Shown piece by piece: positions 10,522 to 64,000 of a stretch of DNA of 64,000 bases. The notes beneath the pieces were generated by a model. The model saw nothing but the letters and a program-made list of their open reading frames with translations, ran no database searches and was not told the origin of the DNA. This DNA is from Adineta vaga (lineage: Eukaryota > Animalia > Rotifera): the NCBI GenBank assembly GCA_021613535.1, contig CP075493.1, positions 11,656,001 to 11,720,000 of the forward strand, read 5' to 3'. The position numbers and the translations under genes were made by a program. Positions within the stretch are counted from its first letter, which is position 1. Each line of letters opens with the position of its first letter.

Positions 10522-11508
10522 TCAATATTTTTGTTGAAGTACTGCCATCATTCGCGGTGCAACATCCATCAGCGCTGCATTCCAACAAGGAAATTCATGT
10601 CTTCCATGACAACCATGTCCAATGGATTTACCATTTCCATAGAAATCATAATAATGTGATATATTTAATGAATTTAACATTTTATGCATATGATTATTAC
10701 AATCATGCATAGCAATTTCTATGACACCTTGATTACCTGTATAAAGTGCAATATTTACATCCCGTAATGATGCTGCATGAGTAATTGGATTTTCAACAAC
10801 CCATCCACTTGAATTTGTTATAACAAATGGAATACCAAATGGACCATTGACTGCTTTTTTATCAACAGCTTCTGAACCAAAAATAACTGCTTGAACACCG
10901 AAATTAAGTAAATCAATAGCACCGGAAAAACTTGCTGTATAAATAAATAGATTCGGATAAACTTCTGCATAACGAATAGCACCAAATCCACCCATAGAAA
11001 GACCAGCTATAGCACGACCTCCTTTTCTTGCTACTGTTCGTAGATTTGCATCAATCCAAGGTATTAATTGTTCATTATGAAACGTACGCCAATTTTGTGG
11101 AGCAGCTTTGCCTGGATTAATCCAATTCGTATACCATCCAAATGGATCACCATTTGGCATTATTGTAATTAACGATAAATTTCCAAGAATTTGTTGTGCT
11201 ATACCACCTCGTTCAGTCCAATCTTCAGCCTGACCAACACCACCATGTAATAGATAAAGAACAGGATAATGTCGTGTACTACCACTAGTTGTGTAATCAA
11301 GTGGAAGAAGTATACGAATCTTTTGATCGCCTTTCACTTCCTTCGATTGCACAATAACATCGTAAAGTTCATTGTTAACTTTTGAAAAATTCGTGACTGT
11401 CAGACCAAAACCTGATATAAAATCAGGAAAATCACTTACAACACACTGAGGAAAATAATAAACGATCAGAAGCAATTGAATCCAAGAAAAATGATGATAT
11501 TTATTCAT
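10522..11508 (-). CDS. Secreted alpha/beta-hydrolase esterase (antigen-85 / putative esterase family), bacterial-like
   Basis: Signal peptide, YPVLYLLHG, LIPWIDAN, nucleophile elbow GLSMGG, ASFSG and a C-terminal His (GRHEF). Intronless. Confidence 0.88.
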   Translation of the reverse strand: MNKYHHFSWIQLLLIVYYFPQCVVSDFPDFISGFGLTVTNFSKVNNELYDVIVQSKEVKGDQKIRILLPLDYTTSGSTRHYPVLYLLHGGVGQAEDWTERGGIAQQILGNLSLITIMPNGDPFGWYTNWINPGKAAPQNWRTFHNEQLIPWIDANLRTVARKGGRAIAGLSMGGFGAIRYAEVYPNLFIYTASFSGAIDLLNFGVQAVIFGSEAVDKKAVNGPFGIPFVITNSSGWVVENPITHAASLRDVNIALYTGNQGVIEIAMHDCNNHMHKMLNSLNISHYYDFYGNGKSIGHGCHGRHEFPCWNAALMDVAPRMMAVLQQKY

Positions 11509-16479: not shown

Positions 16480-17090
16480 ATTCGATGAGAATTAAAACCG
16501 AGATATACTCTGATGAAAATCTTCGTAATAGCTATGAAATGTACGAACGTATTTATAGTATTTATACATGACTTTGAAATACGTATGGGATGTATATGGC
16601 GGGTACTTCATTTTTCTTATTTGAACGAAGATTAAAAAAAGAAAATAACTAAATTTCTAGATGATTAATGCCGAGTGTCAACATTTCGATGACATATAAT
16701 ATATTTGCCAAATACAACCATAATCTCAATGTTTTCAATAGTTTATAACAACTTTTTTTCAGATAAGACAAGTAAAAGAACTCTGTTATAACTTTCATTT
16801 ACACATTCATGTCGATGAAGAATTAGGTAATCGATGGATTAATCTTTCGTTTCTGTTCTCAAAAAGAAGTAAAATGCTATGCAAACAATTTTCAGTCGTT
16901 AAGAAAAAAGAACTCTTTCGACTCATTTTTTCATCGGATTTCATTTTTTAACATAAAACAAAATTTCACACGCACATTTCTGCACATGAAGCAGAGTCTC
17001 GTCTTCTCAACTATGTATCAAAAAGACAAAATTTCAGTTTGTCAAGAGTGAAGATTAACACAATAGTGTAACGATTAATTAGTATTTGTG

Positions 17091-18410
17091 ATGTACGGGC
17101 AACAACGTTGTCGAAAAATCGTATTATTTACTATTTTGATTATAATCTTCATTATGGCAGTAACAAAAATTCCACTACAGCAAACTTGGTCAAGAAATTA
17201 TTTATTTCTATCTAATATATCCGATTTGAATGATTGCTATTATATTGTAAAACCATTCTTTCGTTTCTTGTGTGAGAAAAATAACTCCTTTCAACCAGTT
17301 CAATTATCCACTAATTCAGATAATCATATTTGTTACCAATTATATTCAAACAAAAAAGATGCAGATCTATTCTCTCGTGTACACATCCACTTTCAACCAT
17401 TCAAAAATCGAAAAATCCTTTTCTCAGACATTGAAAATTTATCGAATTCCTGTATCAGTTGTCATCATATTCAAATCATTCAAAACAAACTCTACATTGT
17501 ACCAAGAGCAAATGCATTTAACTATCAAACACGTAGTCGTAGTGTGAAGTTGTTAATCAAACAAATGGTAGATACATTTCCCAATATTCCTGATCTCGAA
17601 CTGTTCTTTCATGTTGATGATGCCGTAGAATTACCTGATGGATTCAACGATGTGCTGTTTAATGTACCAATCTTTGCTTTTAGTAAAACTAATAGAACTA
17701 AAAGAGGTTTGAGGCCAGATGGAATAGTTCCGATGCCATGCTTTACCTTTTGGAGCTGGCCAGAGATACGTGCTGGTCGATGGACTAAAATTTCTCGATC
17801 TATTTTGAATACATCCTACAATCTAGAATATAGCAAACGTGTGCCAAAAATATTTTGGCGTGGAGTTCGAAGTTGGAAGAGAATTTGGTTTCTTAAGACG
17901 GCAAGACAATATCCAAATATTATGGATCTAGCACCGGTGAGTTGGCAGAAAGGGATCGATGGTTTAGCATACAAAGCATCGTTTTCATACAAAACATTGG
18001 AAGAACATTGTAACTATAAATATTTAGCACATCTCGAAGGTAGTTCCTATTCTTCGCGACTAAAGTATCTTCTATTGTGTGGCTCGCCTGTTGTTTATGC
18101 TCCTATTCAATATTGGGAAGAATATTGGTATCATCTTTTGAAAGATGGAGAAAATATTGTGTTTTTTGAATCAGCCGGAAATGAAGGAGCATTTAACAAG
18201 ACACTCGAGTTTTTGATGCAAAATGAAGAAAAAGCAAAAGAAATAGGTCGAAAAGGTCAGCAATTAGTACAAGATTACTTAAATGAACATGCAGTGAGTT
18301 GTTATTGGTGGAAACTACTGAAAGAATATGCTAAACTACTAGGATATAAACCAAGTTTACATCGCGATGCTATTTATATTGATGATTTTCTTCTTGGAGT
18401 TTATGCTTAA
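17091..18410 (+). CDS. Glycosyltransferase family 90 (CAP10/POGLUT-like), type II membrane, copy 1
   Basis: N-terminal TM, PDLELFFHVDD, PCFTFWSWPE, FWRG, LEEHCNYKYLAHLEGSSYSSRLKYLLLCGS and AKEIGRKGQ. Confidence 0.9.
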   Translation: MYGQQRCRKIVLFTILIIIFIMAVTKIPLQQTWSRNYLFLSNISDLNDCYYIVKPFFRFLCEKNNSFQPVQLSTNSDNHICYQLYSNKKDADLFSRVHIHFQPFKNRKILFSDIENLSNSCISCHHIQIIQNKLYIVPRANAFNYQTRSRSVKLLIKQMVDTFPNIPDLELFFHVDDAVELPDGFNDVLFNVPIFAFSKTNRTKRGLRPDGIVPMPCFTFWSWPEIRAGRWTKISRSILNTSYNLEYSKRVPKIFWRGVRSWKRIWFLKTARQYPNIMDLAPVSWQKGIDGLAYKASFSYKTLEEHCNYKYLAHLEGSSYSSRLKYLLLCGSPVVYAPIQYWEEYWYHLLKDGENIVFFESAGNEGAFNKTLEFLMQNEEKAKEIGRKGQQLVQDYLNEHAVSCYWWKLLKEYAKLLGYKPSLHRDAIYIDDFLLGVYA

Positions 18411-18730
18411 TTAAAATGGTTCATCAGAACATATACAGATATTCAACTTATTCACATTTACACTTTCCATAAGCTTCAGAGTAATCGTTTTTTGGTGTTC
18501 TTATGAAAGATAGAATAATATGGAGACAATTTTCAATCATTGTAAAAAATTCATTTTTTCTCTTTGTCTTCTGATCATTTAATATTTTCTGCACGCGAAA
18601 AGAAATAAAAACTCGGCAATTATAGTTTTCTTTTTCGTTCCGATATTTTCAGTTAGCAATGGTAACTTATATCGATATATCTATTTACTGTTTTCTAGAG
18701 TAATCATAGGTTGAATGATGTAGTGAACAA

Positions 18731-20065
18731 ATGAAATTTATCATGTATAATTGTCAACATCGTCGAAGTTTATTATTTCTCATCCTTTTACTTCTAGTTT
18801 TCATTATTATCGTGACAAAAAGTCCATCTCAACAAAACTGGTCATCCGTTATAAATAATTTATTTTCAATGAACGACTCGAAATCTAGTGATTGCCATTC
18901 TATTATGAAATCATCTTTCAGTTTTCTATGTGAGAAATACTCTTTAAAATCAATTCAATTGTACAATGATTCCAATGATCATATTTGTTACCAATTATAT
19001 TCAAACAAAAAAGATGCAGATCTATTCTCGCGTGTACACATCCACTTTCAACCATTCAAAAACCGAAAAATCCTTTTCTCAGACATTGAAAACTTATCGA
19101 ATTCCTGTATCAGTTGTCATCATATTCAAATCATTCAAAACAAACTCTACATTGTACCAAGAGCAAATGCATTTAACTATCAAACACGTAGTCGTAGTGT
19201 GAAGTTGTTAATCAAACAAATGGTAGAGACATTTCCCAATATTCCTGACCTTGATATATTTTTTAACGTTCAAGATATGGTCGATCTACCTGATGGACTA
19301 AATAATATACTTTTCAACGTACCAACATTCGCTTTTGCGAAGACCAACAAAGTAAAAGTTGGTTTGAGATCAGATGGAATAGTTCCGATGCCATGTTTTA
19401 CCTTGTGGAGCTGGCCAGAAACTCGTGCTGGTCGATGGACAGAAAAATCGCAGTCCATTTTGAATGCAGCGCAGAAAATATCATATAAACAACGAAGATC
19501 AAAATTATTTTGGCGTGGAGTATGGAATTGGAAACGAATATGGTATATTGATATAGCAAAACAATATCCACATACTATGGATATAAAAGATGTGAGTTGG
19601 AATGCAAGTGTAGATCGTTTTGCTTATGCAGCGTCAAATACATATATGACACTGGAAGAACATTGTAACTATAAATATTTAGCACATCTCGAAGGTAGTT
19701 CCTATTCTTCGCGACTGAAATATCTATTGCTGTGTGGTTCGCCTGTTTTGTATAATCCGGTACAATATTGGGAAGAATATTGGTATCATCTTTTGAGAGA
19801 TGGAGAGAATATTGTCGTTTTCGAGAAAGCTCGAGACGAAGCAGCGCTTAACAAGATGATTGATTATCTATTGCAAAATGAAAATAAAATGAAACGAATA
19901 GGTCGAAAAGGTCAACAGCTAGTACAAGATTACTTAAATGAACATGCAGTGAGTTGTTATTGGTGGAAATTAACTCATGAATATGGTAAATTACTCGGAT
20001 ACAAACCAACTTTACATCGAGATGCTGTTTATATCGACGATTTTCTTCTTGGAACGTTACTTTAG
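18731..20065 (+). CDS. Glycosyltransferase family 90 (CAP10/POGLUT-like), tandem copy 2
   Basis: Same motifs as copy 1; a clear tandem paralogue. Confidence 0.9.
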   Translation: MKFIMYNCQHRRSLLFLILLLLVFIIIVTKSPSQQNWSSVINNLFSMNDSKSSDCHSIMKSSFSFLCEKYSLKSIQLYNDSNDHICYQLYSNKKDADLFSRVHIHFQPFKNRKILFSDIENLSNSCISCHHIQIIQNKLYIVPRANAFNYQTRSRSVKLLIKQMVETFPNIPDLDIFFNVQDMVDLPDGLNNILFNVPTFAFAKTNKVKVGLRSDGIVPMPCFTLWSWPETRAGRWTEKSQSILNAAQKISYKQRRSKLFWRGVWNWKRIWYIDIAKQYPHTMDIKDVSWNASVDRFAYAASNTYMTLEEHCNYKYLAHLEGSSYSSRLKYLLLCGSPVLYNPVQYWEEYWYHLLRDGENIVVFEKARDEAALNKMIDYLLQNENKMKRIGRKGQQLVQDYLNEHAVSCYWWKLTHEYGKLLGYKPTLHRDAVYIDDFLLGTLL

Positions 20066-23324: not shown

Positions 23325-23606
23325 ATGGAACAGTAGAGCGTTATGTCATTTGTTTCTTTAAAGAAAATTTTTCAAAAAGAAAAATCTGACCGAATGATTG
23401 TTATAGTTAAAATGACGTTTTCGGGAGAAAAAACAACAGGACGGGAAATAACTTACGAAAATATTTATTTAGACATGGTGCAAGAAAAACCGTTCGTTCT
23501 CTTTCTTTTTTTACCTGTTGTGATTTTTTTCTAACGTGTTCCCTTCTTCTTAGCATATAAATACTTGATACACATATTTTTTTCGCATTATTTCAGTCAT
23601 TCAAAA

Positions 23607-26173
23607 ATGGCCACAAGAGGTAGCGGTAATAAAGTGTCTTCGACCAAAGAAAAAAAGAACAATCATCATCGAGACGAAGCAAATTTGTCCGACGATGATA
23701 ATGATGGACAAAAAGCTAACTATGAGAGTACAAAGTCAAAATCATCGAGAAGATCATCGGTTCCAACATCTACAAAGGAACATGTTAACGATCCTCATTT
23801 GGAAAGAACATTAGATCGACCACGTACCATCCAATTCCAATTACCTTTACGATCATTCGACTCTGTTTCTTCTTTATCTTCTAAATCATCAAAACATTCT
23901 TATACTGATTCATTATCCGGATCTTCAGCTTCATCATCCTCATCTTCATTATTTGATTCGTCTTCAGAAAACGATTCGGACTCGGAAACTTCTCCTAAGT
24001 CACATACACGTTCAAGATCTCAATCATCAAACGAAGATTTCGACGTTAAACATTGGTTCGAAAACGATATGATGGAAATGAAACATGATCTTAGAGATTT
24101 TTGTAAAAGAAAACCTTTGATCTTATATCATGAATGGAATGCTAAAGTATGTCGTGATCAATTTCGTGCTCTTAAACCGAATGATTCATCGTACGATAAA
24201 CGCCGTCGATTACTTAACGTGACAGTGATGGCTACAACTGATCGTGCGATTGTCAAAGGAAAATATACAGTTAATAATGAAACAGTTGAATTCAATTTTC
24301 CTGGCCGTATGAAAACTACTCTCTATGAACATCTATTAAAGTCACCTCAAGATGATAATATACAAGCAACATTTAAAACAACTGATGTGAATGTTGTGAA
24401 CGATGATTGTGTGAATGTATGTGATCGATTGATGACTAAAGGCTACGATCCTGTGATGCTTAATATGGCTAATTCGTCAACTCCAGGAGGTGGATTTCGT
24501 ACTGGTGCATCTGCACAAGAAGAAGATCTATTCCGTCGATCAAACTACTCTCGTAGTCTTGATATTAATTTCCCTGAAACAGCTGAAAAAAACCATAAGC
24601 GTTCATATTGTAAGTCATCCAATGAACCCGAGCCATATCCAACTAATGTATCAATGTATCCATTGGAAGACTTTGATGCTATCTATACGTCAGGTCTCTG
24701 TTTTTTTCGGCTTGATAAAGATAACGGTTATGCTTTCATGGATGAACCTCTATACGATGTTTGTTGTATAGCAATAGCTGCATCTCGAGATCCTCCAGTT
24801 AAAGATGGACAACTTTCATCAGATATAGCTGAAATAATGCGAAAGAAAGTGGAAACAATTTTTGCCATTGCACACAAGAATAAACATGATTCTTTGGTAT
24901 TGTCAGCATTTGGATGTGGTGCATTTCATAATCCACCTGAGCATGTGGCAAACATATTTAAGTCTGTCATTGAACAATACGCTGGTGTATTTCGTCGAAT
25001 CGATTTTGCGATTGTTGGCGCATCGGATAACTCACATGGAAACTATTCTATATTCAAGAAAGTACTCGATGGACTCAATGTAAAAGCACCTGAAAGAGCT
25101 AAAAGAGATAATAGTACACATGAAATGCAAAAGGATCAAAATTCATCTCGACATATGAAAAAAAGAAATGAATGTCTTTATGGAATTGAATGTCGTCTAC
25201 AATATTCAGAAAAAAATTCAACCCAACATAATACTAAATATACTCATCCATGCCGGTGGTCAGAGCTTTGTACAAATCAAGACAAAGAACCACATTTAAC
25301 TCATGCAAATCATAGAGCTCATCAATGTCGCAATCGTGATGCATGCAAAGATATCATCGATCCTGTTCATAGAGCAAAGTATCGGCATGAAAACTTGCCT
25401 GATTTCCTGGTACCATGCAAGTATCAGCAGAAATGTCGAGATTCAACATGGACTCATCGAGTGAAATATTCACATGGTGAATTGGCCGGAGGTAGGCTTC
25501 GATTGAATTGATCAAGTTTTTCTTGAAATTGCATCGATTATTTACGCATAGATGATAATAAGCATGGAACAACACGGTCAAAATCTGGTATGAATACTAA
25601 GTTTTGATTTTATCGTCAATTTCTGTCCTATACTAACTATTTCAGATCAATCGAAATCAAAATCATCGACTAATGCGAATTATATAACTGGCATGGATCA
25701 TTATGAACCAGATAATCGATCTAGTGACCATTCATATTCAAGAACTAAAGAAAGATCTACAAATAATTCAGAGTCAAAGTCATCTGGTTCTCACCATCAT
25801 GATTCGACCTCACGACGACAATCTTCCGGTATTTTAGTTTTCTTATTTTGAAGAGAAATATATCATTTTTCTTGATTCTTATCATCATTCTTAGATACTA
25901 ATTCACGAACAAAAGGAGAAGATGATCATTACCGCAAAAATCATTCCGACAAGAACAACAGTGGTACTAGTTTATTTAGCTTTGTTTGAAAAATATTCAG
26001 CTTTCTTCCATTTTTCAGATTCAACAAATTCTGGTAAAGTATCGTCAACATCAAAACACAATCGAGAGTTGACATCCATTGATAAACGATCGCATAAAAC
26101 AGAATGCAAATATGGATCACAGTGTTACAACCATGATCAGGATCATCGTTCCAAATATAAACATGAAAACTGA
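23607..26173 (+). CDS. Microbial-type PARG (TIGR02452/DUF2263 macrodomain) with Ser-rich N-terminus and five PBZ-like zinc fingers, 5 exons
   Basis: LNMANSSTPGGGFRTGASAQEEDLFRRS (GGG-x7-QEE), LVLSAFGCGAFHNPP and FRRIDFAI. C-x5-C...H-x3-Y-x-H repeats follow. Four phase-1 GT-AG introns after 25491 lead to KTECKYGSQCYNHDQDHRSKYKHEN*. Confidence 0.88.
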
Positions 26174-26401
26174 TAAAAACTCGTTCCAAATTTTTCTAAC
26201 TTCTTCAATGTGTAGGAAAATTCAAGATTTATTTTGAATATCAATAACAATATCCTAAATAATAGATGTAAAGAATGAGATTTTTACGGTTTGCAAGAAA
26301 AAAAATAGCATAAAATATAGAAATGATCTTATTGTTGCTACTCGTAAAAGAATTTTCCTCAATGATTATATGAACAGTTTTAGATTTAAAGCTAAAATAC
26401 G

Positions 26402-27322
26402 ATGAGCGTTCAACGAAATTCCCGTAGACGAAGTACGTCGGTAAGTAGACTGAATAGATGAATTTTTACAATGACAATTGATTTCGGCACTAACGAAGTT
26501 TTTAGAAAAACGCTTGTTAATAAATTCATTTACGATTCTAACTCTTTATATTATAAGATATCCGCTGATGCTTCCCGTAGCATTCATCGTCGACCATCAA
26601 GACATCGGTCCAGCACACGCCCTCGTTCACACTCGCACCATAGCAGACACTCCTCTCGTCGACGCAAACCTCGCTCAAATCATCGACATAGACAACGAAG
26701 TCATTCTCATCATCATCAAACTAGACGAAGTAGCACAGGCAGTATGCATCGCAAACGGAATAATAATGATAATACTGCATTCATTGAGAGCTCTCTTCAT
26801 CTACACAACAAATTACGTCGTCGACATGGTGCTCGAGCACTTCAGTTGAACAACGATCTTTGTAATCTAGCTCAAAAATGGGGTTCATTATTTCAATTTT
26901 TGAATATTAATCTTTAAAGAATTTATGTTCTTTTATAGCAAATTATCTTGCCGAAAAAACTCAATTTAAACATAGTGGAACGGAATATCGAGGTAGTAAA
27001 CTCGGTGAAAATCTATATTATCAATCGAATCCGATGGAAGGTCAGGTATATTATCAAATACAATATAATATAGATAGATATGTTTTCAGGAGGTAAAGAG
27101 TCAACAAAAGCATGGTATAATGAGATTAAAGATTATGACTTTAACCGTGGTGAATTTAGTCAAGCAACAGGCCATTTTACTCAACTAGTATGGAAAGAGT
27201 CGAAAGAAGTAGGGTTTGGCCTAGCGAAAGGTGCATCAATGTACTACACTGTTGCTATGTACTTTCCGGCAGGCAATATCGACGACCAATTCATGCAAAA
27301 TGTGCTTCCAGTAGCGCGATAA
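26402..27322 (+). CDS. CAP/SCP (GAPR-1/GLIPR2-like) protein with Arg/Ser/His-rich N-terminus, 4 exons
   Basis: HNKLRRRHG, AQKWA, KHS, GENL, WYNE, GHFTQLVWK and YFPAGN, joined by GT-AG introns (26441-26557, 26883-26938, ~27041-27089). Confidence 0.88.
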
Positions 27323-28136
27323 CTTTTTTATTTAATCAACTGATCTTCTTTAATAAAAAAAGAGTTCAAAACTTATTTTCCATAAATTATATCTGTAGAA
27401 GAGCGACCTTTCGGTAACAATTTCTAGCATAAATATAAATTCTAAATCATGTTTACTGCAGATGGATTGAGAAACATTGTGAAGAAATAGTGAAAGAAAG
27501 AAAATGCATTTGTGTTATTCTTTTTGTTCTTGTCTTCAACATAAATAAAACGAAATCAAGAAAAAAATTCTCATGACAGTTTAAACCTGTTTTCAACAAG
27601 AATTTATACGTAAAGGCTATTGAATAGTTATTGCTCTTCTAAAGCTATGCTCTAATAAATTCAAAGAAGTCTTTTCTAAATTTTAATAAGACTTTTACCA
27701 GGTTCATATTTGCAAAAATAGCACCTGCGTTGAAGATTGCTTTCAGAAGTCTTATGCCAACATGTGCTCATTGCACAACAGACTATACGTGGTAATTCAG
27801 GTCATCTATCTTAGTAAGCGCAGGCATCAGAGCATCTTGGTAATTGTGTCAATAATTAACTCCCGTCCGTAATGTTTTTTCTCCCATCTATGATTTTTTC
27901 CCTTGGACGAAAGAACATAATCTATACTATATGACTCATCGTCAAAACCTTACATGTAGATGATTCAAAGATACGAAGTGGTTGAATAAAAAAATATTTT
28001 TGTTGTTCGCTTTTTGCGTGTTATAAAACAGAACGCAAAACATACCACATTTTCATTACCTGTCGACTTTTGTCATCATTTGAAATATTTTGTCCTATAA
28101 CTGGTAAAATATTGTAAAAAACATTACATACGAAAT

Positions 28137-30561
28137 ATGTCGTCGAAAAAAAGTCCTTCACATTCAGCTTCAAAAACGCATCGACATTCTCGTCCAAATT
28201 CGCGCTCAGAATCAAGATCACGTTCAGCTACAAAATCGCGACGAGGTTCTCATCCTGATTCGCGGTCAACATCAAAATCTCGGTCACATTCACGTACGTC
28301 AAAAAGTGCATCGAGAAATCAACATCAGAAGCAAAAGAAGCATCACTATAGAAATCAATACCGCCATTTAAAATACCATGCTGCCGTCGAATATCGTTGT
28401 CTTAATCAAAAAAACGATTTCGTTAAAAATCAAAGCGAGCTTATACGAAAAATTCTAGATCATGCGAACAAAGAAAACTGGAGTAAATCGCATTCAATTC
28501 CACATGATTTTATATCTTATATTCGTCATCTACAACCGGTTCACCAATGTGCACCAGAAATATTTGAGTCAATCTGTATTCTTGGTCACGTACTAAGTAA
28601 AGAGTATAGAGATGACTTAATCAATCCGAGCAAAGCGGTAGAAATTGCAATCCAACACAATGGAGTACGACGGCTTATTCCCGATCTGCTCGTAGATGAT
28701 GCTGATATTTATATTACAAATGTAATCGAGCGCGAGTACGACAAACACAATAATTTACAACTTAGAGAAAACGAGCATCGTAGTATAATTAAAGAGAAGG
28801 GCACTCTGTTGAAGGTGAATCTTGGAGAGAAAACGGTCCGTAAGATTAAAGATTATGCTATTCGTGTTGCAAAGGCAGCACTCACACTTCTGGAGAACAA
28901 ACCAGGAGTTAATCATGACAAAGACAAAGACTTTGGTACGGACCGACATATTTTTGCCATTCTCGGTCCACATCCTGGTAATTATGGTGATGTTTTTATC
29001 GTTTTCAAACGTGAAATCATGCTACATCCAGATTCTAACTTTTCAAGTTCAGCAGCCACTACATACGGACAATCTTCAAATGCCTACAAACATCAACCGT
29101 GGTTAACTGATCCCAAAGCAGAGAAAGAACGAATTCTCTGTTTTCACTCAAATAAAATGCATTGTTCTATAAATGGTTACGAAAATGTTGCAGCACATTC
29201 ATTGATGGCCTTATGTGGGAAAGACACGAATACTTTGAAAGTTAGTTTAAAAAAAGCACAAGAATGGTGGTGTGATCAAGATCCACATTTTGTTTTCGAA
29301 GCTCATCTTCCTTCGAGAGTTCCTCTCGACTATATCGATAGTATTTATATGCCAAAGAACGTTTTCAAGTCGTATTCTCCTCAACTTCAAAAATCTTTAC
29401 GTCAATTTTTTGGTCACTCACTCCACGTCACGCAACATGATGTCGATCAAAATGATAAAAAAAATCGTGGTGAATTAACCGATAAAAATTCACGTTCAGC
29501 CTATCAAAAATATGTGAATGACAATTTGATAAAGAAGTTTTCACGCAGTAAACAAAATCTATCTCATCGCATGCGTGGAACTGCACTTACTGTGGCACAA
29601 AGTGAATTCGTGGAACATATTCGTCTTCCTATGACAATTTCTCAACAATGCACTCTACAAATGCAACTTTCGAAAAACAAAATGAATCTATCATCGAAAT
29701 CACCTACTTATATTTATTGGCAAGCGATGTGGGGTGACATGATGTTAACAGTATCGAATGAGCCTCTTAATATTCGTAGTCTCAGTGATAAAAATCTTCA
29801 ATGTCTTGTCTGTTATATTGCCCGAGTTCCATCTCCTCTTGATAAAGATTATCAAGAATCGTATTCTTATATAACCAACGGCACACCCTTACAGCATAAA
29901 TTTAACATATCTCGACGTAATTACCACGTAGGATCGCACACATTTCATCGTCATTGTAAATTTGATGATTACGTTACCTATCGACTGAAAATTGAACGAG
30001 ATAATGGTCAAGTAACACTCTCTCATGCTGGCCGAGATAGTTATCATAATAAAGAAAAACTCATCTACCGATTTAAGAAGAGCGAGCTTGATTTGAGCAA
30101 GCTTATTTACGTACACATATCGGCAAATGAACATCCGGTAGCAATACGAAATTTAACAATTCGGTTTGAACGGGCGCATCACTCACATACTTCAGTTAAG
30201 CATACCACTGGCCATCGTCGTTCCAGCAAACAAGGAAACTCACAGACGCGTCGTTCTCAATCACGAAAAGGTAAAATCTTAGACTTCTTTTTCAGTTATA
30301 CGCATACTAATGAACTTTGTATTCATTTTCTTTAGGTAGTTTATCATCAAGTCGTGGACGAAATCGAAGCAGATCTTCTGGTACTAGTCATCGCTCTCGA
30401 TCGACATCAAAGAATCGAAAACCGCGACGTACATCTGGTAAATATCAGCATAAAGATCTATTCCATTGTCCTTTGAAACAATTGTCTCTATTTTAGTTGC
30501 CAGTTCAAAACGTTCTACATCTCGTCATAGATCAAAATCAAGTGATCCTCATTCTCATTAA
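28137..30561 (+). CDS. Uncharacterised protein with RS-rich termini and a central putative ADP-ribosyltransferase-like domain, 3 exons
   Basis: Long ORF plus two RS-rich exons ending TAA at 30559-30561. The core GTDRHIFAILG..NYGDVFIVFKRE...FEAHLPSRVPLDYIDSIY resembles ART-fold strand and catalytic-Glu patterns. The gene itself is confident; the fold call is tentative. Confidence 0.6.
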
Positions 30562-30804
30562 CACTACCGGAAACATGGCAAGCGACGTACTTCGCATCGA
30601 ATATATTCAAAAATTCAATAAATCACCGACCAACATGTTATTTGTCTTGATTTCACCTGTATTCATTTATTGTTACAATTCTGTTCCCTTCTATTTCATT
30701 TCAAAATAAACTCGAAAAAGTTTTTTTTAACAATTCTGTATTTGTGTAACAGAGAAGATATTAAAACGAAAGGATCGAAGTTTTGATCAAGCAAAAATCT
30801 CAGT

Positions 30805-30874
30805 TGAGGGTGGGTGAGGGTGCGGATGTTAGATAGATGTAATATTAACACACATACCCAAACCCTCATCCACA
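30805..30874. repeat. TGAGGG-arm / CCCTCA-arm hairpin element
   Basis: tgagggtgggtgagggtg ... cacatacccaaaccctca are imperfect inverted arms around a spacer shared with 9446-9486. Confidence 0.65.
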
Positions 30875-31253
30875 TGAATTTGAATGATTTTTTGGGTTTA
30901 AATCAATCTAATACATAATACAACCTAAAACACAAAAAATGTGAAGTTACCAATGTCACCGCCGAGGTAGGTAACTTTCATTATCATCCAAGAGTCACTT
31001 CAAAAACGATGTAACACGAAATATTCAAGAAAAATCGATCAACATTTTTTGTATAACCATAATTCTTAGATGAGTCACGAACTAAATTTTAACGTAGCAA
31101 ATGTTTTTTTGTCGATGACGTGTTCTGTAATCATTTGTCATAGTTTCGTGTATTTTTGAAAATCATCCGTTAGTGTGCTCGAGGCATACCTTTTCTCCCA
31201 CATTTTCTCCCACGTTTTCTCTCTTCATCTGTTCTGACACACTATTACTCAAC

Positions 31254-31269
31254 GTGTGTGTGTGTGTGT
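31254..31269. repeat. (TG)n microsatellite
   Basis: gtgtgtgtgtgtgtgt. Confidence 0.7.
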
Positions 31270-31383
31270 TTAAGCATTTTATATTTGTCGATTCTTATGG
31301 CTTTTTTTTTCTTTTGGTATAAAAGACACCTATACCTCTCATACTTCGAACATTGCTTATTGTGAAAAGAAATAGTTACGAAA

Positions 31384-33106
31384 ATGAGTTATTCAGAAAA
31401 CCCATCAGTCAGTAAACCACAGAACGATTTACGAAAGGAACATCAAGAACGGCACAAACCAAATGATTCTGAACCATCATCATTCAAATCTCGACCTTGT
31501 CGCGATGGTTTAGACTGCATTCTTTATGATTCTATTACTCATTGCTCAAAATATTCGCATCCGTGTCGATTTGCGCATCGATGCAATAAAAAAACTACGG
31601 AGCCGAATTTTACCCACGAACCTAATCCTACTCAACAGTGTAGATATGATGAGCAATGTCGAAAGATCAATGACCCACTTCATCGTGCAAGTTATTGGCA
31701 CTCGAATAAATCTGACTATCTACGAGCTTGTCGTGATCACGTACGATGTTCCGACAATTCATTTGAACATCGATCCCAATATGCACACGGAGAATATAAA
31801 TCAAGTACTTATTTTCATTTCTTTTACAAAACATAAAGCATATCATTACTTTAGTCTTCAATTCTAAACCATTGCCAGTACATTCTCAACATAATAATGA
31901 TCATCAACATATTCATAAGAAAGATTCACACAAACAAAGTACCGACAAAAGTTCTAAAACAATCGATCGTGCAAGAAATACGTCCTCGAATCATTCTCCA
32001 CCTGATCGAACGCAATTGCAAAGAAAAGAAAAAATACAAAGTCCTGACCGATCTACGAGTCAAGAAAAAGCAAGCGTACATAAAAAACCTGGCAACAAAG
32101 AAAATACGACCAGCGGAAGACGATCACAAAGCCGAGGCAGATCAAATAGCAAAGGTCGATCACAAAGTCGAAAACGATCGCAAAGCCGAGAAAAACTAAA
32201 ATCAGAACGAAAACCAAGCAATAAAGAAAAATCGAGCAGTGGAAGACGATCACAAAGTCGAGACCGATCAATTAGCAAAGGTCGATCACAAAGCCGAGGT
32301 AGATCAAACAGTAAAGGTCGATCCAAAAGCCAAGAAAAATCAAAAATACAAGGAAAATTGGACAATCGCGACAAAAAGGGAACTGATGAAAGATCGCAGG
32401 ATCGAAGCAGATCCAAGAGCCGAGAAAAATCAAAAACACAAAGAAAACTGGGTAACCAAGATAAATTGCACAGTGAAAGAGGGGCACGAAGTCGAAGTAG
32501 ATCACAAAGTCGAACAAAATCCGATGGCTCTACTTCTCAGGATTCAACAAGTAAGATTCAGTAAAATATTTTTACTTTTGATGCCTAAAACTTTCCGATA
32601 AAGTTGTAAGTTTCAGTAATGAGTTACTGTCAAAGATGTATGTGATGCGCTATTATAGTGAGCAGGTCTTTCTGGCACAGAAACAAATATGCCGAAAGGA
32701 GACTTTTTCGGATTGTGAAGAATATGAAGCGGAAGCCATAATATCTACAAAAGATTTTTCTCCTGATCTACTTTCGATGATAAAAATAGGCGTGGATGAT
32801 GATGATTATGTATGTATGTATGTATCTCTTTTTCATTCTTACTATATTCATCCTCAAGTCAGAGAATAGATTTTTTTGAATCTAATTATACAATATGGTA
32901 TTTCTTCTTTAGAAGTTTTATCATCAGTACCAGAAAACACTCCGAAATCAATTTTACGTCCTTCTCGCCGTTCAAGATCTAGAGATTCAGCTGGAAATGG
33001 TTCGTAGAAATTTTTGTGAACTTAATATAACCTCTTTGTCTCTATAGAATTTAAGAATAATGCTGCACGAGGTCGATTCTCAAGATCAAGAAGTGAATCG
33101 AAATAA
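31384..33106 (+). CDS. PBZ-like four-zinc-finger cassette protein with long RS/KS-rich basic tail, 4 exons
   Basis: The finger cassette is collinear with that of the PARG gene. Intron 31805-31854 joins it in frame to hexapeptide repeats (RSQSRG/RSNSKG). Further phase-1 introns lead to the stop at 33104-33106. Confidence 0.8.
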
Positions 33107-59864: not shown

Positions 59865-60818
59865 TCAAACATTTGTAGCAATTATACTGAGCATACCATA
59901 AATACTCAATGTCTCACGAACTTTTTCGACATGAAAAAGCGTCTTTTTGTTTTTATGATCATTTGTAGTTACTTGCAACATTTCAATCTTTTCCGGTGTG
60001 ATTTTAGGGAAAAGAATTTGATACAATCCATCGGCAGTTCGAATAACAAAATATTGTTTTGGTTTCTTAATAATCACATCATTATTCGATTGACAAACAA
60101 GATTTTGAAGTATATCTAATTTTTCTAATTCATTAATTCCCACATATGCAGCAAGATAAATCACCTGACATTCATTTAAAATTGTTCGAACGTTATTAGG
60201 TAATGGATGTTCACTAATATCTTGTGTAATGAAATGCATACGTTGAAAAAGATCTGGAGATAATATTTGTTCACTAAGAACAGATGCTAATTGATTTGCT
60301 TCTTCACACATATCAATATTATAAATATCGACGCAAGGTCCATGATCATTAAGAATAATCAAAGAAGATGTAGGAATTGGACCTGATCCAATAAAAGCAA
60401 TTTTTGTCACTAAAAAATCAGTTTCTGCATTGTTATTTGTTAAATTTTTAGCAAGATAAACATCAAGTTCTTGAAGCATGTTTATTTCACATTGAATTAA
60501 TTCTTCGTAACCTTTACGATGTTTGAAATGTTCACTGAAATTATGATTTCGATCAACAGCACAGATCTTTGCTGCTCGTATTTCACCGTAGAGACCATAG
60601 AGAGCAAATAAACGACGAAGATTTTCACATGATATTTGTAATTCTGTATCTGTCTGTAACATGTGATCCACTGAGGATGAATTCATATCTTTTGACGACG
60701 AACACAATGTAATAAGTTCATCGAATAAATCAACAATTTGCGGAGAAAATTCAGTTATATCAAGTTGAGAAAGTTCAGTATTTAATTGAATAAGTCGATC
60801 ACGCATAGAATTGTTCAT
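59865..60818 (-). CDS. Nicotianamine synthase-like (NAS family) SAM-dependent aminocarboxypropyltransferase
   Basis: YEELIQCE, KIAFIGSGPIPTSSL, NIDM..AN..A, VIYLAAYVG..EK..IL and VIRTADGLYQILFP follow the NAS motif order. Intronless. Confidence 0.85.
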   Translation of the reverse strand: MNNSMRDRLIQLNTELSQLDITEFSPQIVDLFDELITLCSSSKDMNSSSVDHMLQTDTELQISCENLRRLFALYGLYGEIRAAKICAVDRNHNFSEHFKHRKGYEELIQCEINMLQELDVYLAKNLTNNNAETDFLVTKIAFIGSGPIPTSSLIILNDHGPCVDIYNIDMCEEANQLASVLSEQILSPDLFQRMHFITQDISEHPLPNNVRTILNECQVIYLAAYVGINELEKLDILQNLVCQSNNDVIIKKPKQYFVIRTADGLYQILFPKITPEKIEMLQVTTNDHKNKKTLFHVEKVRETLSIYGMLSIIATNV

Positions 60819-61047
60819 TGTTCTTTGAAAATAAATGCAGTCCAAGTAGTACGTTGCAAAAGATGACTTGCAGTTTCAGAGTAGATTCAAAGTTGTATAT
60901 ATACATAAAAATACTTTATCATTCTGTATGATAACAACATTTTTTTCTTTTTTTTTCTGTTGATATTATGATACAACAAAAAACATGTAGATTATATGGA
61001 AAGATATATTCTTTCACAATTATATTAGAATCTGTAGTTGAAATTAT

Positions 61048-62135
61048 TTATTCAAAGAAAGTTTTTTTAGCAGGAAATGTCGAATATCGTCTACGAATGG
61101 CATCATTACGTCTTAATGTTAAGACATGAATTAATGCTCTGATTTCACCAATACGATGGCCAACAAAATGATCATAGGAACTGCCTTCATGTGGTTGTTG
61201 AAGAGCAAGTTCTTCCAATTCTCTTTTTAAATTTTCAATAAATTCGTTGCAATCATTGATTATGTCTTCTATAAAAGAAAAAGGAACAAACAAAATATTT
61301 CATTGAATATATCTTTTTTTCTGATTCGTTTACGTACCATCGGACATTGCATACAGACACACATGTTTATATTCATGTAATCCATTGATAGACAATGGTT
61401 GTTGTTGACCTTTACTTTGTCGAATGACACCTTTTACTATTTTTTCAAACATATCAGGAATACTAACATCTGCTAGAACAATATTTTCACATAAATGTTT
61501 GGCAAATAGATTATCTTGAGTTTTCTTTCGCTTATTATCAATAAATTGATGGGCAGCACAAGAAAATTGAATGAATGTTTCATCAGGTACAGTCATTGTC
61601 TGGAGACCTTTGTTCTGCTCACCAGCTAAAACAAAACGTAAACAGTAGTTTCTATAAACTATAAACAATGTTTATTCTACGTACGATTTGATGGCGATTC
61701 ATTTTTGTAAAAATATCGTTTATTACAATCAAGAATAAATATATTCACGTAAGATTGATTTTTGTCTGTTATTTTTGATAATGCGCTTGTAACATTAGCA
61801 CCTATATCTTGAACATCCATATCTTTACCTATTTTCTCATCATCGGTAGGTATCATATAATTAGTTCCATCAACCTGTCGACATTGACCAGAAAAATAAA
61901 CTAAAACTAGATCTCCATCGGTAATTTCTTCAGCGAAAGTTGCAATAGTGTTCAGTATTTCTTTATCAACATTTAAACGAGTAGTTACTTTGAAATTAAT
62001 TGTCTCGAGTAAACCACTTAGTTCCCTAGCATTTTTAACCGCATGTTCTAGCCGATTCTCTTTCAGTTTATAGGTACCGTTACCAATAATGAGTGCTCGT
62101 TTCTTATGAGATGAAGAATTATCGGCACTTGGCAT
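61048..62135 (-). CDS. Peptidase C14 caspase-like protein, predicted inactive, 3 exons
   Basis: KRALIIGN..Y, YFSGQC (His replaced by Gln), NYMIP.D, ILDCNK (catalytic Cys lost) and the p10-like NLFAKHL..QQP. Confidence 0.85.
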
Positions 62136-62748
62136 ATTTTTATTTATATCTAAAATACAACCTCCGACAAGCAATACCTTCGAACTTAACAAAATTATTC
62201 TGCGACATTTCATTAAAAAAAAGTTGCATCGTCTGCATACAAAATCAGGGGTAATATTTCAACACATTTAACTTTATTTTTCATCGAAAAAAAATTCCAA
62301 CTAAACAAGATTTCGTAAGTGATGTGTTGTGATGCTTTGTATGTTGGAAAAAATTAAAATGCATTTGTCGTTAAAAAAAACAGACGAATTCATACAAACT
62401 TAAAAACAACAACAAAGATTATGTTTACCGAGCACAAAAAAGAGAAAGTGAGTAACTTTTCTTGCTTCCAACCGATTTTTACCCTAAACGACATTTTTTT
62501 ATGCTAAATCATGCTATACATACATACGTGATTTTTAATATTACCTTGCGTTCAGCGCCAAAAAGGTATCCAACGATGAAACACTGTGTAAACATCCTCT
62601 CTAGGTCTATTGAAACCTGTTGAGTGAAATTTTACATTTTCGAGGAAGTATTGTATTTACATTCGAAAAATACAATGCGAATATAAAATAAAGTGTCAGT
62701 ACATGATCAATCTTTAGATTTAGCTAATATTTCAGATATAGAGCAGAA

Positions 62749-64000
62749 ATGGCACGTTCTAATGACGATTCATCACAACATCGAAAGTTAGCATTAGTCA
62801 TTGGAAATGGCGATTATAGTCTACGAGAAAATCGATTAGATTATTCAAGAAAAAATGCTCAAAGTATTGCCAATTTATTAGAACAACTAGGATTCGATGT
62901 GAAACTTGCCCATGATTTACCTAAACATGAATTGACCACATGTATTATTGATTTTTCTAAAAAAATCGAAGATGGTGATTTAGTCGTATTCTATTTCTGT
63001 GGTCATGCATGTTATAGTAACGGCGATAACTATCTCATACCCGTCTGTGATAATCAGATAGTTGCACAAGACGATATGAAGGACTTTGCTAATAAATACG
63101 AACATATGGTATCACGTATACTAGAAAAAAATGAATCATATGTAACTATTCTAATTTTTGACTGTGCAAAATCATATTTAACAAAGAGTACAAGAAAATC
63201 AAAATGTAAGTATAAGATCATTAAATGCTTTGAAAAGATACAAGTCATATTAATTTAGCATTAAGCCAATGTGATGGATTAGTGGAGACAAAACCATCTG
63301 CTGGAACAATAGTGCAATTTGCCCGTTCTACTAATCAACATGCAAAAGACAATAATGATACAGGCTCGTACAATTTATATTTTAGACATTTATTAAATAG
63401 CATTGCTGAAGAAAATGTTGATATTGCGGATGCTTTTCAACGTATTGACAATGCTGTACGCCAGGAAAGTAAAAATACACAAAAACCTGTATCTATGAAT
63501 GGTTTACGCAAAAACCAATTGATTTGCCTCAATCTTGTTGTCAAACCTGTTGAGAGTAAGTTGATATTAATATGTACAAAAGAATTGCATCTTTCTGTCG
63601 CTCTTACTCTCTCATCAATCTATCGGTTTTGTAATTTATAGAATGGGATGAAATCAAACCAAGTGAGATGGCATCCGTAAAGAAAAAACAAACGGAGATG
63701 AGGGCGTGTTATGATAATTTTCCAAGTATTGATGATCTTACCAAAAAAAACAAACCAAGTATTGCAAGAGCAGAGAAATTGACACAACAGATTTTATCAC
63801 AACCACCATCGGGAGATGCCGGGCAAAGGGATACTGCATGCCATGTTCTACACAAACTCTTCGAACAGGAAAATCAAGAATGTTTATTCTTTGATTCCAC
63901 TCAAAACATGACACTTCATGATGCATCAGGAAGTTTGGCTGATTTTAGTTCTCAAGAAAAACCATTTGTTTTAAAATTAAACAATGTCGATGGACTCGGT
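62749..64000 (+). CDS. Peptidase C14 caspase-like protein with additional C-terminal domain; runs off the window end
   Basis: RKLALVIGN.DY, YFCGHA, NYLIP, FDCAK and a p10 exon. A third exon from 63642 stays open to 64000. Confidence 0.85.

Follow-up and report, generated by a model that had tools for sequence, protein, structure and literature searches.

The Salmonella effector SopF carries a DUF3626 domain (PMC6682159) and modifies a glutamine of the V-ATPase with ARF1 as cofactor (PMC12560355). In CopC, the triad H137-F183-E325 is accompanied by H327, F207, D172 and D230 (PMC9239266), and the product of OspC3 was not reversed by any hydrolase tested (PMC8883491). A third precedent is found in the macro-PARPs PARP14 and PARP9, where writer, reader and eraser are accommodated in one chain (PMC10499325). 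In the bdelloid rotifer Adineta vaga, a bactPARG with PBZ repeats is already known (Slade 2011, cited in Perina 2014; PMC4245714), and the available part of that account mentions no transferase domain in or beside the published A. vaga PARG-PBZ proteins. Here we describe an A. vaga gene, I4U23_003801, situated at 28137..30561 of a 64,000-nucleotide stretch (hereafter the window: contig CP075493.1 of GenBank assembly GCA_021613535.1, positions 11,656,001 to 11,720,000 of the forward strand). Its product contains a predicted ADP-ribosyltransferase (ART) domain of the SopF/OspC/DarT branch. Both the family that it represents and the arrangement of domains are new within the known ART superfamily, and most long members of this family harbour a microbial-type PARG upstream of the ART domain in the same protein. 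Unless stated otherwise, coordinates refer to the window; I4U23_003801 and its three neighbouring genes described below lie on the + strand.

I4U23_003801 consists of three exons (28137-30270, 30336-30437 and 30497-30561) and encodes 766 residues. The spliced translation is identical to the protein record P0002, which matches the open reading frame (ORF) beginning at 28137 at 100% over residues 120-480, the region searched. As a correction to the original prediction, which was made from the DNA letters, this frame is exon 1 of the spliced gene and not an ORF of 732 residues. Two GT..AG introns near the 3' end are skipped in three of four RNA-like runs (X1, X3, X5) and also in runs X13 and X14, and are retained in the DNA-like runs X11 and X12; splicing was deduced from GT..AG joints in contigs of RNA-like runs, none of which is recorded as RNA. 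The protein is laid out as an RS tail (residues 1-80), the ART domain (92-472), a lectin-like sandwich (479-675) and a second RS tail (683-766).

Residues 92-472 (28410..29552) almost certainly constitute an ART-fold, NAD+-binding domain, as judged from an AlphaFold2 model built on 95 sequences (mean predicted local distance difference 95.6, predicted template modelling score 0.93). In an earlier two-domain model, here model 1 (17 sequences, local score 64), the catalytic loops stayed unresolved and lectins were the only matches, so that a deeper alignment was required. With the deeper model, Foldseek ranks 1-8 are occupied by SopF (E 9.7e-4 and 1.2e-3), OspC3, DarTG, DarT and DarT1. A VIA-align comparison with 48,161 chains likewise placed ARTs in all of the top eight positions (Z 9.4-11.2), and a repeat run gave the same order. 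SopF is the closest fold (Z 11.2-11.7 over 206-210 residues, root-mean-square deviation (rmsd) 3.9-4.1 Å, 13-14% identity), followed by CopC (Z 10.7, 204 residues, rmsd 4.0 Å), DarT (Z 10.6, 177 residues, with the lowest rmsd, 3.3 Å), OspC3 (Z 10.5, 206 residues, rmsd 4.1 Å; a second OspC3 entry at Z 9.4), two DarTG entries (Z 10.3 and 10.2) and DarT1 (Z 9.9, 188 residues, rmsd 4.1 Å). Rows below rank 8 cover a helical insert only, except Tpt1 (Z 7.1). As the fold scores are tied to within about 1 Z, the domain is placed within the SopF/OspC/DarT branch without membership in any one of its families. The original prediction had proposed an ART fold resembling DarT and DUF3626-type domains: the model does not lack the split beta-sheet, and since SopF itself holds DUF3626, both analogies proved apt.

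The claim of a new family was likewise borne out, as residues 92-472 find no meaningful match in Pfam, NCBIfam, PHROG, PADLOC or PDB sequence searches, and PDB sequence searches with P0001, A2 and A4 returned nothing. A hit to Pfam Herpes_UL49_1 (E 0.017) on the ART domain, seen in only one of 16 members, was discarded as chance. The helical insert, which separates strand 1 from strand 2 by about 100 residues (28599..28895; DSSP assigns helices at residues 155-253 of the model), is the mark of the family and probably the reason why profiles miss the domain. As regards PARPs, profile PF00644 matched neither the 16 A2 members (E up to 10) nor P0001. PARP2 appears at Foldseek rank 11 (E 0.5) and PARPs lie outside the top 50 VIA-align rows, a position compatible with kinship. 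The strand-1 H-G-[ST] and strand-2 Tyr of PARPs, motifs tabulated in PMC7955679, are not those of the family, in which strand 1 bears H-R-C (H-Q-C in the query) and strand 2 a Phe. In a viral structure library a DUF3626 phage protein stands at rank 4 (E 5.5e-3). That library and the Atlas yield weak giant-virus look-alikes, with proteins of Yasminevirus (E 1.8e-3), Bodo saltans virus and Tupanvirus and with DUF5846/DUF5863 clusters, possibly further unnamed ART-fold families.

Homologues were collected with a profile of 16 domain sequences (E <=0.001) from 1.84 billion representatives, which gave 420 clusters, of which the best 150 were listed. Conservation was counted in 101 whole-domain homologues out of 171 proteins, the query being counted twice (P0001, P0002), and separately in the 60 homologues outside the bdelloid clade. 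The predicted catalytic triad, H136, F273 and E388, sits on model strands 1, 2 (positions 181-185 in model numbering) and 5, the layout of the H-Y-E-like clade of the ART superfamily, and all three residues rank within the ten most conserved positions of the domain. His136 (in PVH; 28542..28544; model strand 134-138) is retained in 96/101 homologues and in 59/60 outside the bdelloids, Phe273 in 93 and 57, and Glu388, whose codon occupies 29298-29300 at the start of strand 5, in 96 and 57. As a control, only D263 and E388 among the 48 acidic positions exceed 90% in the 60 non-bdelloid homologues, and no Glu other than E388 is conserved in more than 16 of them. The motifs and the Glu codon of the original prediction lie where it put them, in the + frame of the 28137 ORF (GTDRH at residue 267, nt 28935; YGDVF at 283, nt 28983; IDSIY at 400, nt 29334), and are conserved far beyond chance. 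Its domain range, 28780..29360, held the core motifs correctly and began about 400 nt too far downstream, missing His136; it had seen no classical PARP HYE signature where the triad H136-F273-E388 is present.

The other residues of the predicted NAD+ pocket, to which roles are assigned by analogy with CopC, are D263, T268, G277-P278 and Y283-G284 (with F273, 28923..28988). D263 is conserved in 97/101 homologues (58/60 non-bdelloid), G277 in 97, Y283 in 89 and G284 in 96. Downstream lie an H297-P298-D299 motif (29025..29033; 95, 93 and 83 of 101, with D299 kept in 44/60 non-bdelloid homologues) and the stretch H384-x3-E388-x-H390 (H-F-V-F-E-A-H-L; 29286..29306), where H384 is found in 92/101 and H390 in 95/101. 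Five homologues deviate at position 388, three with His and one each with Gln and Ala. The distant proteins P0100, P0116 and P0139 have His for the catalytic Glu (H-x-H) in an otherwise largely intact pocket and possibly follow a changed chemistry. Within A. vaga, allelic differences in the ART domain amount to five synonymous and four non-synonymous changes, which leave the conserved catalytic residues untouched and are too few for selection to be judged.

Comparison with the bacterial effectors bears directly on what the domain might modify. The fold, the H-F-E triad and the E-x-H arrangement are common to OspC3/CopC and the window domain, and H327, F207, D172 and D230 of CopC would correspond, in equal order, to H390, Y283, D263 and D299, equivalences read from order and strand position. 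The longest structural alignments (204-210 residues) are those with SopF, CopC and OspC3. Together with the CopC-like triad, E-x-H and conserved D263 and D299, they are what a protein mono-ADP-ribosyltransferase would display, either like SopF, acting on Gln, or like OspC3/CopC, performing Arg ADP-riboxanation: a host-type cofactor would bind the helical insert and switch the enzyme on, and PARG and PBZ would have a different task within the protein. Two further observations point the same way, namely an Atlas cluster with Shigella_OspC on 33% of its members (0.90, a lead only) and fusions to GBP, LRR-ROCO, WWE and VWA, which suggest protein-level defence signalling. This reading is nonetheless unlikely. 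ADP-riboxanation resists ARH1, ARH3, TARG1 and MacroD (PMC8883491), and Glu/Ser mono-ADP-ribose is not removed by microbial PARG (PMC6445106); as these products resist the hydrolases tested, the long-retained fusion to PARG would go unexplained. The His-to-Phe spacing is 137 residues in the window domain versus 46 in CopC, and the ankyrin repeats that form the C-terminal part of OspC/CopC are missing here, where a lectin-like sandwich takes their place. There is no Pfam match to the SopF or OspC/CopC families, DUF3626 included. SopF, in addition, is a secreted, single-domain protein without a PARG, PBZ or lectin partner.

DarT offers the second comparison, as the new family shares with DarT/DarT1 of DarTG both the fold (Z 9.9-10.6) and the coupling to an eraser. 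A DarT-like enzyme, in line with the nucleic-acid substrate suggested by the original prediction, would modify bases of DNA or RNA, the fused hydrolase acting as its antidote. DarT has the lowest rmsd and a Z tied with that of SopF, the pairing of writer and eraser resembles DarTG, the window paralogue has basic RS tails, and the N-terminal region of bdelloid fusions is RRM-like (a lead only). We regard such an activity as quite improbable: DarT marks are N-linked and are erased by ALC1-like DarG2 or NADAR, not by PARG (PMC8883491, PMC10789625), whereas the partner eraser here is a microbial PARG of the PF10021/TIGR02452 type, with no cognate DarG2 macrodomain or NADAR found in this role. In contrast to DarTG, the system is eukaryotic, the eraser usually resides in the same polypeptide, PBZ readers are present and strand 2 bears Phe rather than Tyr. 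As regards a possible counterpart of the extra catalytic Arg of DarT, the loop before strand 2 has no conserved Arg, and at 137 and 320, the Arg columns of the family, the window protein has Gln. Pfam DarT was not matched in 16 members, and Pfam, NCBIfam, PADLOC and PHROG scans of the window domain were empty for a DarT profile.

The PARG/PBZ context, absent from the original prediction, is the most informative part of the picture. A PARG lies upstream of the ART domain in one protein in 32/37 full-domain members that have 600 or more residues ahead of the domain (own hidden Markov model), namely in 11/11 of the bdelloid clade and 21/26 other long members, a count that omits 64 shorter full-domain proteins, many of them partial. 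Pfam recovers a microbial-type PARG upstream of the ART domain in 12/13 long ORFs from metagenome loci and a PARG in 17/34 distant proteins, many of the others being short. Finger motifs of the form C-x5-C-xn-H-x5-H precede the ART domain in 75/101 homologues. In the 18 non-bdelloid proteins with both domains, ART and PARG distances correlate (rho 0.52, 0/2000 permutations, uncorrected for shared rates and relatedness). A typical bdelloid fusion of 1,700-2,200 residues comprises, in order, an RRM-like region, PARG, a PBZ array, the ART domain, a lectin-like sandwich and a second PBZ array; the RRM-like region is a lead only (Pfam RRM_1 at E 0.0097 in one of ten; Atlas PARP14-RRM clusters, 0.86). 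Like PARP14/PARP9, these fusions unite writer, reader and eraser, with the difference that a non-PARP ART stands for the PARP, microbial PARG for the MacroD-type macrodomain and PBZ for the WWE/macro readers; the likeness would be convergent. Variations on the theme occur. The ORF L010:3424-8583 ends in an R-S-E-type ART (PF01129, E 1e-16) that replaces the C-terminal PBZ array and so holds two unrelated transferases plus PARG, and the distant members P0119, P0078, P0080, P0105 and P0125 are fused to GBP, LRR-ROCO, WWE, VWA, or EF-hand together with a true PARP.

Considering this partnership, we lean slightly towards a domain that transfers ADP-ribose from NAD+ to a ribose hydroxyl, of either an ADP-ribose chain or RNA, in a reaction reversed by PARG; the argument is one of analogy, the type of product being read from the known targets of the fused eraser and readers. 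A PBZ finger recognises a pair of adjoining ADP-ribose units, PARG-like macrodomains cut O-glycosidic bonds (PMC10789625), Deinococcus PARG cleaves poly(ADP-ribose) (PAR) and not Glu- or Ser-linked mono-ADP-ribose (PMC6445106), and a precedent for RNA exists in RhsP2, which puts ADP-ribose on the 2'-hydroxyl (PMC12340436). A ribose-linked product is the simplest solution because the writer has been retained with PARG and PBZ across supergroups. In the proposed mechanism, an ART of the SopF/OspC/DarT branch would use NAD+, held by His136, Phe273 and Tyr283 and activated by Glu388, and the helical insert would regulate activity or bind a cofactor. ADP-ribose would be attached by an O-glycosidic bond, as short chains or on RNA; the mark would then be read by PBZ fingers and erased by the microbial-type PARG that accompanies the writer. 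The biological role may be stress or anti-parasite defence signalling.

In the window, the parts of the fusion are found as separate spliced genes that keep the order and orientation of the fusion (23565-33103): PARG-PBZ, ART-lectin and PBZ-RS, with a CAP gene between the first two. The first gene (23565..26173) has its own stop after splicing and matches PF10021 (E 7.8e-22) and TIGR02452 (E 2.6e-34). Its PARG domain (24036-25070) carries an intact GGG-x7-QEE at 24486, in agreement with the microbial-type motif GGG-x6-8-QEE, and is followed by a PBZ array (25167-25490) and one last PBZ finger besides. A CAP/SCP-domain gene with splice joints (26471..27322; Pfam CAP, E 1e-8) intervenes between PARG and ART; no CAP domain was found in 38 related loci, and the N-terminal His/Arg/Ser-rich stretch of the protein resembles the neighbouring genes. 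The last gene (31384..33103) encodes a four-finger PBZ-type array (31498-31803) with a long RS-rich tail, and no catalytic domain was found in it. The possibility that a single long gene has the PARG, CAP, ART and PBZ ORFs as its exons was rejected, as each ends in its own stop after splicing. None of the contigs listed bridges them, and a weak hint of a separate gene is that RNA-like contigs of two studies begin at 28067-28068, where a DNA run continues. Both window PBZ arrays match the C-terminal array of the fusions at 40-54% (seven fusions with that array whole), compared with mostly 22-38% for the internal arrays. This closeness suggests that the cluster goes back to a duplicated fusion gene whose copies then lost complementary domains, with RS tails perhaps taking over targeting.

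Several observations weigh against a PARG-reversible, ribose-linked product. Five of the 26 long non-bdelloid members show no PARG match, three PARG matches have no EE motif while the ART is intact, and the bdelloid fusions P0055, P0061, P0062 and P0075 have an intact PARG-QEE and a decayed ART. The correlation of ART and PARG distances, which otherwise speaks for the pairing, ignores shared rates and relatedness, and the bdelloid PARG clade that includes the window PARG is supported at 0.65 only. The fold matches are moderate and tied (Z about 10-12, 8-14% identity, rmsd 3-5 Å), and the four closest enzymes of solved structure neither build chains nor act on a ribose hydroxyl. The window paralogue departs from the family consensus at Arg137 (Gln), Arg320 (Gln) and Glu355 (Ser), the last two changes being shared with its close relatives P0027/P0029; it retains the triad, and owing to the loss of three consensus residues its activity may be altered or weaker. 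Finally, ordinary PARPs, of which A. vaga has many copies (PMC10809525), could make PAR for the PARG and PBZ modules. An alternative is that the domain is an NAD+ glycohydrolase or a weakly active sensor of NAD+ or ADP-ribose, and that PARG-PBZ turns over PAR from canonical PARPs. The adjoining stand-alone PARG-PBZ and PBZ-RS genes, the fusions in which the ART alone has decayed and the three residues lost in the window paralogue would all be in keeping with such an arrangement. It is improbable, however, given that many residues outside the NAD+ triad (D263, H297, H384 and H390) are kept at >=90% in distant protists, a pattern that an acceptor site would show, and that the window protein retains the catalytic Glu.

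The family is distributed patchily. In 30 look-ups the organisms named were Adineta, Diphylleia (four clusters), Gefionella, Pharyngomonas, Copromyxa, Pelomyxa, Mastigamoeba, Kipferlia, Eukaryota sp. TZLM1-RC and a red-algal culture transcriptome that possibly derives from mixed organisms; Rotaria and Didymodactylos are also among the sequence-search matches, and a further A. vaga paralogue, I4U23_011018, turned up in the same way. We take these organisms to represent bdelloids, amoebozoans, metamonads, a heterolobosean, a malawimonad and Diphylleia. In a FastTree phylogeny of 96 domains (five of the 101 were dropped as duplicate or gapped), 40 bdelloid-clade sequences group with support 1.0, a group with amoebozoans with 0.98 and a group with metamonads with 0.99. 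Together with the ART-PARG distance correlation, this grouping fits an old fusion that would have been retained patchily across eukaryotes. Bdelloids likely gained the family by transfer from a protist, since no other animal is present among the named matches. Relatives were not found in viral contigs, GTDB genomes or annotated phages, in searches of limited reach with the best 150 of 420 clusters listed, and when short relatives were sought that count a protist among their members, two fragments came back. A broader scenario, which we put forward tentatively and hold to be possible rather than probable, is that the family is a second, PARP-independent eukaryotic poly(ADP-ribose) polymerase of the bacterial SopF/OspC/DarT lineage: it would have been packaged early in eukaryote evolution, in one protein with PARG and PBZ, most animals, plants and fungi would be without the system, and bdelloids would have gained and expanded it.

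The N-terminal tail of I4U23_003801 (residues 1-80; 28137..28376) is basic and Ser/Arg/His-rich, with 23 Lys plus Arg, two Asp plus Glu and 14 RS/SR dipeptides; a 42-nt in-frame deletion at 28231-28272 in runs X11, X12 and X14 represents a repeat length polymorphism. The lectin-like beta-sandwich of the concanavalin A/galectin-like type (residues ~479-675; 29571..30161) was identified by Foldseek of model 1, with matches to VIP36, galectin-8 and legume lectins (best E 6e-4). It is found in 31/31 bdelloid-clade members with room for a sandwich, and Pfam Methyltransf_FA lies behind the ART domain in one distant homologue. The basic, RS-rich C-terminal tail (residues 683-766; 30183..30558) spans the two introns and replaces the PBZ array of the relatives; after 30539 an extra A, either an allele or a reference error, is seen in six runs, five of them RNA-like and one DNA-like, and would alter the last few residues. 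The window as a whole is eukaryotic in character, with 30% GC, and includes GPCR, F-box, P450 and nidogen genes. Elsewhere in it are a nicotianamine synthase domain on the - strand (59865-60845; Pfam NAS, E 7e-30), a candidate horizontal gain in an animal genome, a pair of divergent ORFs with caspase-type domains (Peptidase_C14; 61677-63258), and genes for a TauD dioxygenase (2070-2720), a putative esterase (10522-11508) and two tandem glycosyltransferase-90 proteins (17088-20065).

No published description of the family was found in a literature search of the main texts of openly available papers, and a figure or table elsewhere may refer to it. The available parts of papers on bdelloid stress and repair (PMC10809525, PMC6264785), ART surveys (PMC7955679, PMC12522546), a hydrolase review (PMC7050489), effector reviews (PMC11598138, PMC12560355) and PMC3417536 do not describe it. 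Bdelloid ADP-ribosylation genes go up after desiccation and irradiation (PMC10809525), and the family is an uncounted candidate in bdelloid stress tolerance or defence. Invisible to Pfam and drawn from the ART branch of bacterial toxins and effectors, it retains its catalytic residues in several supergroups of eukaryotes and is a likely writer for the PARG-PBZ proteins known in A. vaga. To our knowledge, the chains of ADP-ribose in eukaryotes have been credited to PARPs alone. Through this family one can test directly if PARG-sensitive ADP-ribose can come from an enzyme that is not a PARP, and the window paralogue, a natural stand-alone predicted writer, is the easiest member to assay. Should the polymerase reading be true, a writer-reader-eraser system would operate in parallel beside the PARPs.

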